This document shows, piece by piece, positions 53,503 through 64,000 of a stretch of 64,000 nucleotides of DNA. How positions within the stretch are numbered: the first letter of the stretch is position 1; the number at the start of each line of letters is the position of its first letter. The stretch comes from Patescibacteria group bacterium (GTDB lineage: Bacteria > Patescibacteriota > UBA1384 > JACPKC01). The translations under genes and the position numbers were made by a program. The stretch spans positions 12,526-76,525 of the forward strand of contig JBMNRW010000001.1 of NCBI GenBank assembly GCA_050944875.1, read 5' to 3'. The notes under the pieces were generated by a model, which had not been told where the DNA came from, did not search any database, and was given only the letters and a program-made list of their open reading frames with translations.

Positions 53503-54789
53503 ATGACTATGCAATCGCTCGTTGCGCGGGAAATCCTCGACTCGCGCGGGAACCCAACTGTTGAGGTAGACGTCACGCTCGAGGACGGATCGTTCGGTCG
53601 GGCTGCTGTACCGTCTGGCGCGTCAACCGGATCGCACGAGGCGCATGAGCTCCGTGACGGCGACAAGGCGCGGTACCGCGGCAAGGGTGTCGCAAAGGCC
53701 GTGCAGAACGTTGTCGGTGAGATCGCCCAAGCGGTCGTCGGTACGGCGTTCGACACGCAGGCCGCACTCGATGAAGCGCTCATCGCGCTCGACGGCACGC
53801 CGAACAAGTCGCGGCTCGGGGCGAACGCCATCCTCGGCGTGTCACTTGCGTTCGCGCACGCTACGGCTGCTTCCCGCAAGGAGCCGCTCTTCCGCTACGT
53901 CGTGACGCTCTCGAAGTCGCCGAGGAAGCCAGTGCTCCCGCTCCCCATGTGCAACATCGTGAACGGTGGAAAGCACGCGAGCGGGTCGACGGACATCCAG
54001 GAATTCATGGTCATGCCGGTCGGGGCGCCTTCGTTTAAGGAAGCGCTTCGGATGATGACCGAGGTGTTTCACGCCCTCGGCGCTGTGCTCCACGAGAAGG
54101 GGTACGGCACGACGGTCGGTGACGAGGGCGGCTACGCGCCGGCGGTGAAGCACGGCAACCGGGAAGCGCTTGAGCTCATCTCGGAGGCGGTCAGCGCCGC
54201 AGGCTACACGCTCGGGGCGGATATCGTCCTGGCGCTCGACGTCGCAGCGACCGAGCTCTACCGAGACGGGAAGTACCACCTTGTCACTGAGGGCCGATCG
54301 CTCTCGAGTGAAGAGATGGTGGCGTTCTACCAAGAGCTCGCGAAGGACTTCCCGGTCCGTTCGATCGAGGACGGGCTGGCTGAAGACGACTGGGACGGCT
54401 GGAAGACGCTCACTGGTTCGCTGGGCGAGACGACGCAGCTCGTCGGTGACGACCTCCTCGTGACGAACGTCGAGTTCCTTCGCCGCGGCATTGCCGAACA
54501 GGCGGCGAACGCGATCCTCATCAAGGTGAACCAGATTGGCACGCTCACTGAGACCGTCGCGGCCGTCGACCTCGCGCACGAGGCCGGTTGGCGCGCGGTC
54601 ATGTCACACCGCTCCGGCGAAACCGAAGACACGACGATCGCCCACCTCGCCGTCGGTCTGGGTACCGGCGAGATCAAGACAGGCTCGACGAGCCGGTCAG
54701 ACCGGACGGCGAAGTACAACGAGCTCCTGCGCATCGAAGAGATGCTCGGCTCAGACGCCGAGTTCGCGGGCAGTACAATCCTTAAGTAA
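53503..54789 (+). CDS. eno: Enolase, canonical copy.
   Basis: [21 protein letters not shown] and [10 protein letters not shown]. All catalytic residues are present. Confidence 0.9.
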
Positions 54790-54805
54790 GCATCGGAGGC
54801 ACTGC

Positions 54806-55453
54806 ATGGGACGACTTATCTGCGTACGGCACGGCAAATCAGCGTACAACGCGCTCGGGCTTTGGACGGGACACACTGACGTCGAACTCGTCGACGAAGG
54901 GCGCGCTGAGGCGCGGCGGGCGGGCGAGGCGATCCGCGACATCCACGTGCACGTCGCGCACACCTCGATGCTTACCCGGACGCACCAGACGCTCGACGAG
55001 ATCCTCGCCGCACTTGGTCGCACCGACCTGGATCCGGTCCGCCACCACGCCTTGAACGAGCGGCACTACGGCGTGCACACCAGCAAGAACAAGTGGGAGG
55101 TAAAAGAGGAGATTGGTGAGGAGGAGTTCCAGCGTATCCGCCGCGGCTGGGATACGCCGATCCCCGAAGGCGAGACGTTGAAAGACGTCCACGCCCGGGT
55201 CGTTCCCTACTTCGAGGAATACATCAAGCCCGACCTCATGGCCGGCAAGAACGTACTCGTCGTCTCGCACGGGAATACGTTGCGCGCGCTCGTGAAGCAC
55301 ATCGACGGTATTTCTGAAGAGGAGATCGCGGACGTTGAGATCGCGACCGGTGAGGTCCACTGTTACTCGATGGACGAGGCCGGCAACGTCATCGACAAAG
55401 AGATCCGGACCGCTACGGTTGAGATTGATATCCAGGAGCCGGCGTACGCGTAA
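54806..55453 (+). CDS. gpmA: 2,3-bisphosphoglycerate-dependent phosphoglycerate mutase (histidine phosphatase family).
   Basis: LICVRHGKSAYN (RHG motif), HGNTLRAL and a ggagg RBS. Confidence 0.75.
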   Translation: MGRLICVRHGKSAYNALGLWTGHTDVELVDEGRAEARRAGEAIRDIHVHVAHTSMLTRTHQTLDEILAALGRTDLDPVRHHALNERHYGVHTSKNKWEVKEEIGEEEFQRIRRGWDTPIPEGETLKDVHARVVPYFEEYIKPDLMAGKNVLVVSHGNTLRALVKHIDGISEEEIADVEIATGEVHCYSMDEAGNVIDKEIRTATVEIDIQEPAYA

Positions 55454-55507
55454 CGGGTACATAAGCTCCGCACACTGCGAAAGAGTGGCCGGTTGGCCGT
55501 TCTTTTG

Positions 55508-61466: not shown

Positions 61467-61473
61467 GGTGGTT

Positions 61474-63042
61474 ATGCGCAAACTTCTCCTCGTTATCTTC
61501 GACGGCTTCGGCCTCTCCCCTGCTACGAAGGGCAATGCAATCGCGGCAGCGGCAACGCCCACCCTCGATCGCCTCGTGAGCGAGTACCCGTACCTCGCGC
61601 TCACCGCGCACGGGCCAGAGGTCGGGTTGCGCTGGGGCGAGATGGGCAACTCGGACGTCGGCCACGCCAACCTTGGCGCCGGCCGGGTTGTCCTGCAGGA
61701 CGCGACGCGTATCACGCAGGCAATGGAGACCGGTGGCTTTGCGGACAACGAGGCGATCAAGGCGGCGTGCGAAGCTGCCCGCCAGCCCGGCCGGACGCTC
61801 CACATCGTAGGGCTCATCTCGGCCGGTGGCGTCCACGGCCACCTTGACCACCTCTGTGCTATCCTCGACGTGGCGAAGAGCGCGCAGGTGCCCTCAGTCG
61901 CCGTGCACTGCATTACCGACGGCCGCGACAGTCAGCCGAAAGACGCCGCGACGAAAGTGAAGCGTGTCCAGGACGCCGCGATGAAAACCGGAGCCCAGAT
62001 CGCCACGGTCATGGGTCGGTACTACGCTATGGACCGCGATCGCCGTTGGGATCGCACGAAGCAGGCGTACGAGGCGCTCGTCCTCCGGGCCGGTACGCAG
62101 GCGCCGACGCTCGAGGCCGCACTCCAGGCGGCGTACGGCGCGAACCAGAGCGATGAGTTCATCGAGCCGGTTGTTATCGGTGACGCGCCGGCGGTGAAGC
62201 CGGGCGACGTCGTCCTGATCACAAACTACCGCGCCGACCGTATGCGCCAGCTCGTGGCTGCGCTCGTCCAGCCGGGATTCCAGGAGTTCACCCGCAACGA
62301 TCTCGGCGTATCGCTTACGACCTTCACGGACTACCAGGTTGAAGGCGTCGAGGCGCAGGTCGCGTTCCCGCGCGAAACCGTCGACGAGTACTTTGGTGCC
62401 TGTGTCGCGGCGGCGAAGCTCCGCCAGCTGCACATTGGCGAGACGGAGAAGTACGCGCACGTGACGTACTTCTTCAACGGTAGTCACGAGGAGCCGCTGC
62501 CGGGTGAGAAGCGCGTCCTCGTCAACTCGCCGAAAGTCGCCACGTACGACGAGACGCCAGCGATGTCGGCGCGGGAGATCACGGCCGCGGCGATTGATGC
62601 GTATCGGGCAGAGAGCTTCGACGTTCTTATCGTGAACTACGCGAACGGTGACATGGTCGGCCACACGGGCAACGTCGAGGCAACGACCCAGGCAGTCCAG
62701 GTGCTCGATGAGTGTCTCGGGCAGCTCGTCGCTGAGGTTGAGGCCAGGGGGGATATTCTCCTCCTCACTGCCGACCATGGGAACGCCGAGCAGCTCATTC
62801 ACCCGGATACGGGCGACATCGACAAAGAGCACACGGCGAATCCCGTGCCGTTCGTCCTTGTCGACCCGAAGCGACGGGAGGCTGGCCTCAAGGAAGACGC
62901 GAAACTCGTCTTTATAAGTACCGCACCGATCGGCATCCTCGCTGATGTCGCGCCAACGGCGCTCGACCTCCTTGGGATTCCGGTGCCGGACGTTATGACA
63001 GGCAAGAGCTTGGTTCGTGAATTCCGTAACCGCGTCTCGTAG
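61474..63042 (+). CDS. gpmI: 2,3-bisphosphoglycerate-independent phosphoglycerate mutase, copy 1.
   Basis: LVIFDGFGLS, MGNSDVGHANLGAGR (catalytic Ser), SAGGVHGH, GRYYAMDRDRRWDR, and a gaggtgg RBS. Confidence 0.85.
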   Translation: MRKLLLVIFDGFGLSPATKGNAIAAAATPTLDRLVSEYPYLALTAHGPEVGLRWGEMGNSDVGHANLGAGRVVLQDATRITQAMETGGFADNEAIKAACEAARQPGRTLHIVGLISAGGVHGHLDHLCAILDVAKSAQVPSVAVHCITDGRDSQPKDAATKVKRVQDAAMKTGAQIATVMGRYYAMDRDRRWDRTKQAYEALVLRAGTQAPTLEAALQAAYGANQSDEFIEPVVIGDAPAVKPGDVVLITNYRADRMRQLVAALVQPGFQEFTRNDLGVSLTTFTDYQVEGVEAQVAFPRETVDEYFGACVAAAKLRQLHIGETEKYAHVTYFFNGSHEEPLPGEKRVLVNSPKVATYDETPAMSAREITAAAIDAYRAESFDVLIVNYANGDMVGHTGNVEATTQAVQVLDECLGQLVAEVEARGDILLLTADHGNAEQLIHPDTGDIDKEHTANPVPFVLVDPKRREAGLKEDAKLVFISTAPIGILADVAPTALDLLGIPVPDVMTGKSLVREFRNRVS

Positions 63043-63062
63043 CTACACGGAAGGGGTACCGC

Positions 63063-64000
63063 ATGGCGAAACCAGCAGTCACTGACCTGCGGTCTGGGAC
63101 GGGTCCAGTCGTCCTCCTTATTCTTGACGGCTGGGGGTTGTCGCCGAGTTGGTCGGGGAACGCGATCGCGCTTAACGACCCGCCGACGTTTTCGTACCTC
63201 TGGAAGTACTACCCGCACGCCGTCCTTCAGGCGTTCCGCAAGGTCCCGGGCGTTACCAGTGCAGTCGGCTCGTCAGAGATCGGCCACGCGTCCATCGGAT
63301 CCGGCCGACTCATCGAACAGGACCTGGTCGAGATCAACCGGATGATCGACGACGGGCAGTTCTTCGCGAATCCAACGCTCATCGCTGCGTTCGATCAAGC
63401 CATGGCACAAGGGAAGGCTGTTCACCTGACCGGGCTCCTCTCTGACGGCGGCGTGCACGGCGACCACCGTCATGCCCATGCGCTCGTCCGGCTTGCGCGG
63501 CAACGCGGCGTGACGAAGCTCTGGCTCCACCCCATCCTGGACGGCCGCGATGTCGAGCTGCGTTCGGCGCACCGATACGTCGACGAGCTCGAACGCGTCC
63601 TCGCCGTCGAGGGGATTGGACGGATCGCGACGGTGGCCGGTCGGTACTACGCTATGGACAAAGGCGAGTACTGGGATCGGACTGCACTCACCTACGAGGG
63701 CATGGTGTTCGGCCATGGCCGACATTCCTCGAGCGCGCACGCTGCGGTTACCGAGGCGTACGACCAAGGCCTGGACGATGAGCACGTCAGACCGACGGTC
63801 CTCGCGCCAACCGGAACGCTAGCGCCTGGCGACGTCGTCGTTCACTGGAACTTCCGCGCAGACCGCGGTCGCCAGCTCGTTCAGGCGCTCATGGACCGGT
63901 CGGCTTTTCGTGCGTTTCCGTTCCGGCGGCGCTACCCACTCGCCGGCGTCAGCGTTGTCACGCTTACCGACTACCACCTCGAGCTCCCGCAGTGCCAAGT
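63063..64000 (+). CDS. gpmI: 2,3-bisphosphoglycerate-independent phosphoglycerate mutase paralog, copy 2; partial, runs off the window end.
   Basis: It is absent from the ORF track because there is no stop. The ATG at 63063 gives VVLLILDGWGLS...VGSSEIGHASIGSGR...SDGGVHGDHRH...GRYYAMDKGEYWDR. Confidence 0.8.
   Translation, partial: MAKPAVTDLRSGTGPVVLLILDGWGLSPSWSGNAIALNDPPTFSYLWKYYPHAVLQAFRKVPGVTSAVGSSEIGHASIGSGRLIEQDLVEINRMIDDGQFFANPTLIAAFDQAMAQGKAVHLTGLLSDGGVHGDHRHAHALVRLARQRGVTKLWLHPILDGRDVELRSAHRYVDELERVLAVEGIGRIATVAGRYYAMDKGEYWDRTALTYEGMVFGHGRHSSSAHAAVTEAYDQGLDDEHVRPTVLAPTGTLAPGDVVVHWNFRADRGRQLVQALMDRSAFRAFPFRRRYPLAGVSVVTLTDYHLELPQCQ

Follow-up and report, generated by a model that had tools for sequence, protein, structure and literature searches.

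Why should a bacterium with a very small genome keep several enzymes for each of two successive steps of lower glycolysis? Candidate Phyla Radiation (CPR) bacteria have such genomes and are believed to discard functions that are redundant. The question is raised by a 64,000-nucleotide stretch of DNA from a Patescibacteria group bacterium (assembly GCA_050944875.1, contig JBMNRW010000001.1, positions 12,526 to 76,525 of the forward strand), referred to here as the window, which encodes towards its right-hand end two enolases and three phosphoglycerate mutases (PGMs), one of them dependent on 2,3-bisphosphoglycerate (dPGM) and two of the cofactor-independent class (iPGM) in tandem. This inventory had been proposed by a sequence-only reading of the window, and the open reading frames (ORFs), their coordinates and the family scores all agree with it. 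The genes, which belong to a Berkelbacteria-like member of the CPR, form two sets. Set B, composed of a HAD phosphatase, a phosphoglucose/phosphomannose isomerase (PGI/PMI), a short enolase (eno2), iPGM-A and iPGM-B, would be the inherited equipment for converting 3-phosphoglycerate (3-PG) to 2-phosphoglycerate (2-PG) and this to phosphoenolpyruvate (PEP). Set A, a canonical enolase (eno1) followed by a dPGM like that of Schizosaccharomyces pombe, would be a cassette typical of other CPR groups, such as the Kaiserbacteria, and gained later. As far as sequences and structural models allow one to predict, the locus is probably a stack of these two modules, one inherited and one gained, whose five products are ordinary active isozymes. 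They would all work in their ordinary reactions, with no new chemistry.

Both enolases are well-defined members of their family. Against the equivalog model TIGR01060, with a cut-off of 300 bits, eno1 reaches 620.7 bits and eno2 473.4 bits, and the Enolase_N and Enolase_C domains (PF03952 and PF00113) are found in the two proteins. Thirteen catalytic and ligand residues were checked in E. coli numbering, comprising the Mg2+ ligands D246, E290, D317 and S42, the acid/base residues E209 and K342, and the substrate-binding residues H159, Q167, E168, H370, R371, S372 and K393; the numbering follows a sequence which we take to be the E. coli reference, and which carries the expected residue at every numbered position. 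All thirteen are kept in eno1 and in eno2. The sequence-only reading had placed a canonical enolase followed by gpmA at 53503-55453, which is where eno1 and the dPGM gene lie, and further on a PGI/PMI gene, a 401-aa enolase with intact catalytic residues and a back-to-back pair of gpmI genes, a description borne out by the ORFs and by the residue check.

The shortness of eno2 is due to discrete losses. Around ten residues are deleted at E. coli positions ~57-66, after the first active-site loop and including the GKGV motif, and another 11-12 residues at ~258-269, within the 250-275 loop; the C-terminal tail is missing, and KPDQIG replaces the canonical K(V/F)NQIG. These features are not private to the window, since eno2 belongs to a clade of 67 close clusters with lengths of 396-445 aa (nearly all of 396-412) and identities of 55-75%, in which each of the thirteen residues is kept in 62-67 of the 67 members. 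The named ones are all 'Candidatus Berkelbacteria' or unassigned Patescibacteria. Structural models were made for eno2 and for P0121, a protein 98% identical to iPGM-B that served as its proxy, and all template-modelling (TM) scores given here refer to these two. The AlphaFold2 model of eno2, with a mean predicted local distance difference test (pLDDT) of 93.9, superposes on the 2-PG-bound enolases of Mycobacterium tuberculosis and E. coli (7CLL, 7CLK, 6BFY) with TM scores of 0.94-0.96 and root-mean-square deviations of 1.7-2.2 Å.

A similar picture was obtained for the two iPGMs. Their scores on the equivalog model TIGR01307 (cut-off, 330.65 bits; domains PF01676, Metalloenzyme, and PF06415, iPGM_N) are 594.7 bits for iPGM-A and 528.6 bits for full-length iPGM-B, whose gene runs past the end of the window and whose complete 540-aa sequence was taken from a public contig (L001) showing 100% identity in a comparison of 1001 nt. 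The residues checked, in the numbering of 1EJJ and with roles which we take to be those given by Jedrzejas et al. (2000), included the nucleophile S62, the metal site D12, D444 and H445 together with D403, H407 and H462, and the substrate residues H66, H123, D154, R185, R191, R261, R264 and K336. All 16 key residues are canonical in iPGM-A, and 15 of the 16 in iPGM-B, where the exception is R191K. The catalytic serine, said in the sequence-only reading to be kept in both proteins, is indeed present in the motifs GNSDVGH (iPGM-A) and GSSEIGH (iPGM-B), aligned with Ser62 of 1EJJ. The substitution R191K was considered as a marker of the iPGM-B clade and rejected, as most proteins of this clade have R at the position and K occurs in 14 of 97 other iPGMs. 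The P0121 model (pLDDT 89.5) gives TM scores of 0.82/0.86 to the closed 3-PG complex of 1EJJ, in comparison with 0.31-0.38 (query-normalised) and 0.40-0.50 (target-normalised) to phosphopentomutases.

The third mutase belongs to the unrelated class. On the sub-family model TIGR01258, whose cut-off is 81.7 bits, the dPGM (PF00300) scores 184.9 bits, and equivalog-level models are not reached (for instance, 182 bits against the 316 of PRK01295). A segment of 25 residues of E. coli GpmA is missing from it, with the catalytic residues intact. The 14 active and binding residues of GpmA (in E. coli numbering H11, R10, N17, T23/G24, R62, E89, Y92, K100, R116/R117 and H184/G185/N186), a set by which mutases can be told apart from the superfamily's broad-specificity phosphatases, are all kept, both here and in the orthologues from loci L007, L008 and L010.

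These data bear on another suggestion of the sequence-only reading, namely that one of the sets acts on a different substrate, with an activity of the phosphopentomutase or phosphonate type or on an analogue of 2-PG. The suggestion was not supported: the residues are canonical apart from R191K, the iPGM-B model fits 1EJJ and not the phosphopentomutases, eno2 is closely superposable on substrate-bound enolases, and neither the 13 enolase nor the 14 dPGM residues show any loss. Nothing in the sequences of the window itself speaks for new chemistry or for an alternative substrate. Nor does anything here favour the moonlighting role, at the surface or in an RNA degradosome, that the sequence-only reading had offered for enolase-2.

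Where do the two sets come from? The PGI, enolase and two iPGM genes recur together in six further loci of Berkelbacteria-like genomes, taken from different assemblies (L002/L003; L004, from GCA_016198525.1; L005/L006, from GCA_016187225.1; L092, from GCA_964423885.1; and L093, from GCA_964480605.1), with enolases of ~401-402 aa (one call is longer) and iPGMs of 513-527 and then 544-557 aa. Identities to the window orthologues are 62-75% for eno2, 55-73% for iPGM-A and 59-64% for iPGM-B. The HAD gene precedes PGI in L002/L003, L004, L005 and, by similarity, L006, and is absent from L092 and L093. The block sits behind sortase, S8 peptidase and tsaC genes in L004, L005, L092 and L093 and behind an ABC transporter in L002/L003, and in all six relatives' loci it is followed by CCA/NUDIX/ClpB genes; in the same way, the genes found downstream of iPGM-B on L001 encode a CCA-adding enzyme, a NUDIX protein and a Clp ATPase. 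In several more assemblies, matches similar to eno2 and to iPGM-B lie on contigs of the same size, and iPGM-B orthologues reach 50-65% identity. The gaps deduced from the coordinates are operon-like, with 19 nt between PGI and eno2, 7 nt between eno2 and iPGM-A and 20 nt between the two iPGM genes. Altogether, these observations mark eno2 as the lineage's own, vertically inherited enolase and not an add-on.

The tandem position of the iPGM genes might suggest that one copied the other. A recent tandem duplication of gpmI is, in fact, ruled out: iPGM-A and iPGM-B are 42.6% identical, neither is closer to the other than to unrelated bacterial iPGMs, and neighbour-joining trees with bootstrap gave 100% support for the A clade, 99.5% for the B clade and 0% for A and B as sisters. 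A split with 100% support separates B, along with a further 81 long iPGMs (of which the small number with names are 'Patescibacteria group'), from A, which groups with 1EJJ and generic bacterial and archaeal iPGMs. The enolases, at 44% identity between eno1 and eno2, are similarly distant, and the simple recent duplication that the sequence-only reading had set against its own proposal is found in neither family.

The two iPGM genes are part of a wider family of arrays in CPR-like loci. A scan of metagenomes with a DNA pattern for EVGL.W[AG]EMGN returned 120 loci, of which 67 were long enough to be judged; at least two adjacent iPGMs are present in 28 of these and at least three in 13, typically after PGI and an enolase. 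The motif itself, tried as an iPGM-A-specific signature, is not one, as the iPGMs matched are ~40-55% identical to iPGM-A and include generic ones. The array copies sort by position: the first copies form one clade (99%), the second copies another (100%), and all third copies fall within the B-type side (100%), a CPR-typical iPGM sub-family that includes iPGM-B. The first-position copies are the sister group of the Berkelbacteria A clade in a tree that carries no bootstrap values. In every related locus, as in the metagenome arrays, the gene upstream of the short enolase is PGI, and the enolases with both deletions (385-408 aa, with one call of 449 aa) adjoin PGI and multi-iPGM arrays. Three array enolases have the second deletion only. 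The enolases of full length (417-434 aa in most cases, some ORF calls being longer) adjoin a single iPGM, except for two in eno-iPGM-iPGM arrays, and the short enolases found with a single iPGM are mostly on truncated contigs. Every full-length array copy keeps the key residues, with the exception of the first copy of L211, which was called as a short ORF and has a gap at D12, and position 153 is variable among the B-type array proteins. The simplest reading is an ancestral order PGI, eno, iPGM1, iPGM2, iPGM3, from which the middle mutase gene is missing in this lineage. In other words, the best-supported account of set B is vertical inheritance of an old operon type, of which the first and the last (B-type) iPGM have been retained.

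Some further observations were made on these arrays. Runs of three consecutive iPGM genes that follow PGI and a short enolase can be seen, for example, in L103, L141, L158, L165, L177, L179, L199, L209, L210 and L211. In L164 (5118-6556, on the strand carrying the iPGM genes) the third iPGM is split into ORFs of ~170 and 349 aa, for which a frameshift, a pseudogene or an error of sequencing might account. Other loci hold a separate eno-iPGM-iPGM type, made up of two clades of its own, one of them labelled Parcubacteria, and a genome scan with a generic iPGM motif found, among the matches listed, five unrelated eno-iPGM-iPGM loci and no Berkelbacteria. Two loci of the eno-iPGM-iPGM kind, L012 and L015, come from metagenome-assembled genomes labelled 'uncultured Gammaproteobacteria'. 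The second iPGM of L012 groups with 100% support with proteins including the Patescibacteria-labelled P0231, and that of L015 lies in a wider 100% clade holding the Falkowbacteria protein P0229; these taxonomic labels may be wrong.

The origin of set A seems to be a different one. Its two genes, separated by an operon-like gap of 16 nt as deduced from the coordinates, lie in a lineage-specific segment of 6.7 kb located between the S8 peptidase gene and tsaC, which are adjacent, or split by small ORFs only, in the relatives' loci L004, L005, L092 and L093. Once near-identical strains and a handful of contigs at 78-86% identity are set aside, the best relatives of eno1 stand at 69-74%; the named ones come from Kaiserbacteria (74%), Saccharibacteria (70-72%), 'Patescibacteria group' and unclassified bacteria, with no Berkelbacteria among them. 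Acquisition of set A is indicated by these non-Berkelbacteria relatives together with the S8-tsaC neighbourhood of the four relatives. An adjacent pair of enolase and dPGM genes was also found in L007, L008 and L010, and a canonical enolase followed within ~10-16 nt by a dPGM of 206-215 aa is present in the Kaiserbacteria assembly GCA_001781275.1 and on an unclassified contig (L008). In the sister species represented by L007, which comes from the same sample as L002, the order is S8, typA, eno1, dPGM, GH1(-) and tsaC(-), and because this species shares the segment, the segment must predate the split of both. The GH1 gene accompanies eno1 and dPGM at the same place in L007 and L215; it scores 274 bits against an NCBIfam equivalog cut-off of 478.5. 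No integrase was seen for the 6.7-kb segment and no att-like repeats around it, the sole tRNA-related repeat being the T-arm common to both tRNAs. The most likely course of events would then be a gain of set A by lateral transfer in the common ancestor of the species and its sister species, and the donor seems to have been another CPR lineage. In this regard, enolase trees of the CPR have been described as incongruent with species trees, in a paper that, in its passages on the subject, ascribes the conflict to loss and lateral transfer among CPR bacteria (PMC7304191), and the origin proposed for set A fits this pattern.

Regardless of their origin, the genes of both sets are maintained. In comparison with a second strain ~95% identical at the nucleotide level (L214, L215), the ratio of non-synonymous to synonymous substitution rates (dN/dS) is 0.025 for eno1, 0.10 for dPGM, 0.046 for eno2, 0.079 for iPGM-A and 0.050 for iPGM-B, with typA at 0.032 for comparison, and neither frameshifts nor stop codons occur in the genes. 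All five are under strong purifying selection and none of them is decaying. As for the reasons to keep them, iPGMs require Mn2+ and no cofactor, and dPGM requires 2,3-bisphosphoglycerate and no metal, and the copies may have been retained through such differing dependence on cofactors and conditions. Alternatively, they may serve to raise the flux through the trunk yielding PEP and ATP. The part of the published account of CPR glycolysis that deals with these steps presents the conversion of 3-PG to PEP as an ATP-yielding trunk fed by the salvage of sugars and nucleotides (PMC7304191).

Other explanations deserve to be weighed against this one. The most serious is that the short enolase, or one or more of the iPGM copies, has a physiological substrate or role of another kind, such as that of a mutase for another phospho-acid or sugar phosphate or of a regulatory protein, which would make the redundancy only apparent. 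In its favour, many small genomes have kept deep paralogues specific to array position and every copy is under purifying selection, and it gains some weight from the relatives of iPGM-B. A sub-clade formed by P0136-P0139, P0141, P0146 and P0147 carries key-site substitutions, six of the seven sharing H123Q, R153L, R191Q, R264G and H407K and P0136 having S62A, R153E, R264S and H407K instead; two altered B copies that were looked up, P0146 and P0137 (L092:10001-11635 and L093:10001-11638), are still inside the PGI-eno-iPGM-A-iPGM-B operon. The B copy is thus able to change its active site while remaining in the same operon, and since P0146 scores 445 bits on the iPGM equivalog model, above its cut-off, the score alone is no guarantee of an intact site. 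A second variant B-type site, with H123N, R153F and H462E, was observed in P0150 and P0151, also relatives of iPGM-B. Motif variants of the B type (GSSEIGHASIG, with R153 not fixed) and the two loops lost from the short enolases, one of which falls where enolase structures have their mobile active-site loop, point in the same direction. On the other hand, the binding residues of iPGM-A, iPGM-B and eno2 in the window are canonical apart from R191K, all copies of the double and triple arrays hold the full residue set (the L211 gap aside), and the models fit iPGM and enolase far better than other families. Moreover, where set A is absent the short enolase is the sole enolase seen within ~10 kb of the operon, and is presumably the working enolase of those lineages. 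A different substrate or role for some copy is therefore an unlikely explanation here, if not a negligible one. A bolder version, suggested by the remodelled B site of the sister sub-clade, would see in the arrays a small pathway whose position-specific iPGMs have distinct jobs, iPGM-A and iPGM-B representing a functional split not described before; these jobs could be different phospho-acids, opposite directions, different regimes of metal or pH, or a non-catalytic regulatory copy. We regard it as doubtful to a similar degree.

It is also conceivable that the redundancy is transient, with the displacement of one set by the other under way and the extra genes heading for loss. Gain, loss and displacement have shaped the PGM profiles of bacteria (PMC2964296), this lineage lacks the iPGM that occupies the middle of the three-copy arrays, and canonical residues have been lost from iPGM-B in the related sub-clade; yet the dN/dS values of all five genes (0.025-0.10) are as low as that of typA, their frames are uninterrupted, and both sets are common to at least two species with orthologues 61-86% identical, all of which renders such a passing state very improbable. 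The least credible option, which may practically be dismissed, is that the two sets derive from different organisms joined in a chimeric contig by an assembly or binning artefact. The window does come from a metagenome-assembled genome and the relatives of eno1 are in other CPR phyla, but a chimera is ruled out by an independent assembly (L215, from SRR23967303), which links both sets by carrying typA, eno1, dPGM, GH1, tsaC, HAD, PGI and eno2 on one contig of 9.8 kb. The contig of the sister species (L007) also has S8, typA, eno1, dPGM, GH1 and tsaC, and G+C content, G+C at third codon positions (GC3) and codon use are uniform across the segment junctions. The G+C content of the window is 62-65%, compared with 47-49% in the contigs of the sister species (L002, L007), though the proteins are 61-86% identical.

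Several points weigh against the preferred account of an inherited set B, a gained set A and five ordinary isozymes. The activity of the five products is predicted from sequence and models, and purifying selection speaks for the usefulness of every gene but not for an identical function of all of them. The persistence of two to three deep iPGM paralogues in tiny genomes hints at some differentiation beyond the active-site residues. The iPGM trees are neighbour-joining and not maximum-likelihood trees, and the grouping of iPGM-A with the first-position copies comes from the one lacking bootstrap values. With regard to set A, the lateral origin was read from best-hit taxonomy, gene order and four relatives' loci, and not from a full reconciliation. 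No shift in composition was found in the 6.7-kb segment, where eno1 and dPGM have a host-like codon use, so that any transfer would be old or from a donor of similar G+C; and because the housekeeping genes typA and dus share the segment, a rearrangement instead of a clean insertion is possible.

The features discussed are collected in Table 1. NCBI already names these genes as members of the same families (record MGI6103080 to MGI6103086). The PGI/PMI protein scores 272 bits on NF006425, under the equivalog cut-off of that model. An Rfam search of the window returned the two tRNAs and nothing else, and the count of promoter-like and terminator-like sites was at or below chance expectation.

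Table 1. Location of the two enolase and phosphoglycerate mutase gene sets and of neighbouring features (window positions).
Feature	Position	Strand	Details
eno1, canonical enolase	53497-54789	+	GTG at 53497; ATG at 53503 gives 428 aa
dPGM, short 2,3-bisphosphoglycerate-dependent phosphoglycerate mutase	54806-55453	+	215 aa
GH1, beta-glucosidase-like	55508-56758	-	PF00232, 266.8 bits; last gene of the 6.7-kb segment
tsaC	56751-57395	-	
tRNA-Ala	57460-57535		ARAGORN, Rfam
214-aa ORF	57590-58234	-	without family match
HAD-IB (SerB-like) phosphatase	58415-59077	+	TIGR01488, 52 bits (cut-off 45); first gene of set B
PGI/PMI, bifunctional-type phosphoglucose/phosphomannose isomerase	59156-60241	+	PF10432, 129 bits
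eno2, short enolase	60261-61466	+	401 aa; two loop deletions, truncated C-terminus
iPGM-A	61474-63042	+	522 aa
iPGM-B	63063-64000	+	540 aa in full; runs past the window end
tRNA-Leu (CAA)	50110-50195	+	ARAGORN; Rfam RF00005; left edge of the 6.7-kb segment
typA	ends 53423		
Lineage-specific 6.7-kb segment	50064..56750		tRNA-Leu, dus, typA, eno1, dPGM, GH1; between the S8 peptidase gene and tsaC

The surroundings of the two sets offer some observations of their own. The 214-aa ORF beside tRNA-Ala has a G+C content of 0.557 and a GC3 of 0.61, in comparison with ~0.64 and 0.80 for its neighbours, and the most deviant codon use of the region; the 95%-identical strain has at this spot a 157-aa ORF (L215:5909-6382). 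The 214-aa ORF was probably inserted recently beside the tRNA gene. Large ORFs without a Pfam match (482, 543, 331, 290 and 675 aa) lie at 23230-24678, 24991-26622 and 44207-48232, all on the plus strand. The 290-aa and 675-aa ORFs form with the sortase and S8 peptidase genes a run that is also found upstream in the loci of the Berkelbacteria relatives, as would fit a locus for surface proteins that are sortase substrates. The other genes of the window are ordinary housekeeping ones and include RNR, ftsZ/ftsA, lexA, dinB, hisS, relA, Clp ATPase, nusA, mreB and murA.

How unusual is this accumulation of isozymes? The sequence-only reading had called it so for a compact genome, in agreement with the survey of Foster et al. 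(2010, PMC2964296), in which more than one bacterial-type iPGM was found in only 4 of 702 genomes, and both PGM classes, as well as paralogues, were mostly found in larger ones. The patchy distribution of PGMs was explained there by gains, losses and lateral transfer. Each gene of the present locus is a known and already annotated family member; it is for their configuration that no published description was found, as a search of the open-access literature returned no account of multi-iPGM arrays behind a loop-deleted enolase together with a dPGM-enolase cassette. The locus and its relatives run against the generalisation, drawn from cultured bacteria, of rare iPGM paralogues and of a coexistence of both classes as a trait of larger genomes, and they mark the steps from 3-PG to PEP as a heavy investment of these organisms. 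The three mutases and two enolases of one cell make up a natural test set for the persistence of isofunctional enzymes in minimal genomes. They also carry a warning for metabolic reconstruction, as family models call all the copies 'iPGM', including those of relatives with a rebuilt active site. If the five are plain isozymes, the locus would be a tidy case of lateral gain and old paralogy and no more; still, redundancy is not enough to explain why tiny genomes have held on for so long to paralogues that are specific to array position.

Among known systems, the closest parallel to the whole locus is E. coli, where GpmA and GpmM are both active, with very different specific activities, and either of them rescues a null mutant (PMC2964296). 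As in that bacterium, dPGM and iPGM, which are non-homologous isofunctional enzymes, share one genome here. In contrast to the trend of the same survey towards larger genomes, the organism is a CPR bacterium with two deep tandem iPGMs in addition to a dPGM, and related loci have up to three iPGMs in succession. For CPR glycolysis itself, Jaffe et al. (2020, PMC7304191) report in the relevant passages that enolase, PGI and PGM are patchy across the radiation, and the same passages hold nothing on multiple iPGMs per genome, on a PGI-enolase-iPGM array or on a loop-deleted enolase.

At the level of the single enzymes, eno1 and eno2 share with the canonical enolases of E. coli and M. tuberculosis (6BFY, 7CLL) the Mg ligands, the acid/base pair and the substrate residues, and eno2 is 45-49% identical to them. 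Unlike these canonical enzymes, eno2 and its clade have neither the two loops nor the C-terminal tail, and they show the KPDQIG variant. The two iPGMs align over their full length with the Mn-dependent reference enzyme of Bacillus stearothermophilus (1EJJ/1O98), with E = 3e-123 for iPGM-B, and both keep its serine nucleophile and presumed metal ligands, as well as its substrate residues save for R191K in iPGM-B. In contrast with 1EJJ, iPGM-B has, besides this substitution, an N-terminal extension and, close to its C-terminus, an ~18-residue insertion (residues 488-505) to which the model gives the form of two short helices, and the B-type proteins have GSSEIGH in place of GNSEVGH and a variable position 153. 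Finally, the dPGM of the window finds its counterpart in the short dPGM of S. pombe (1FZT, 211 aa), with which it aligns end to end in one stretch (4-200 to 10-208); unlike the yeast enzyme, it is bacterial, from the CPR, and encoded right after an enolase.

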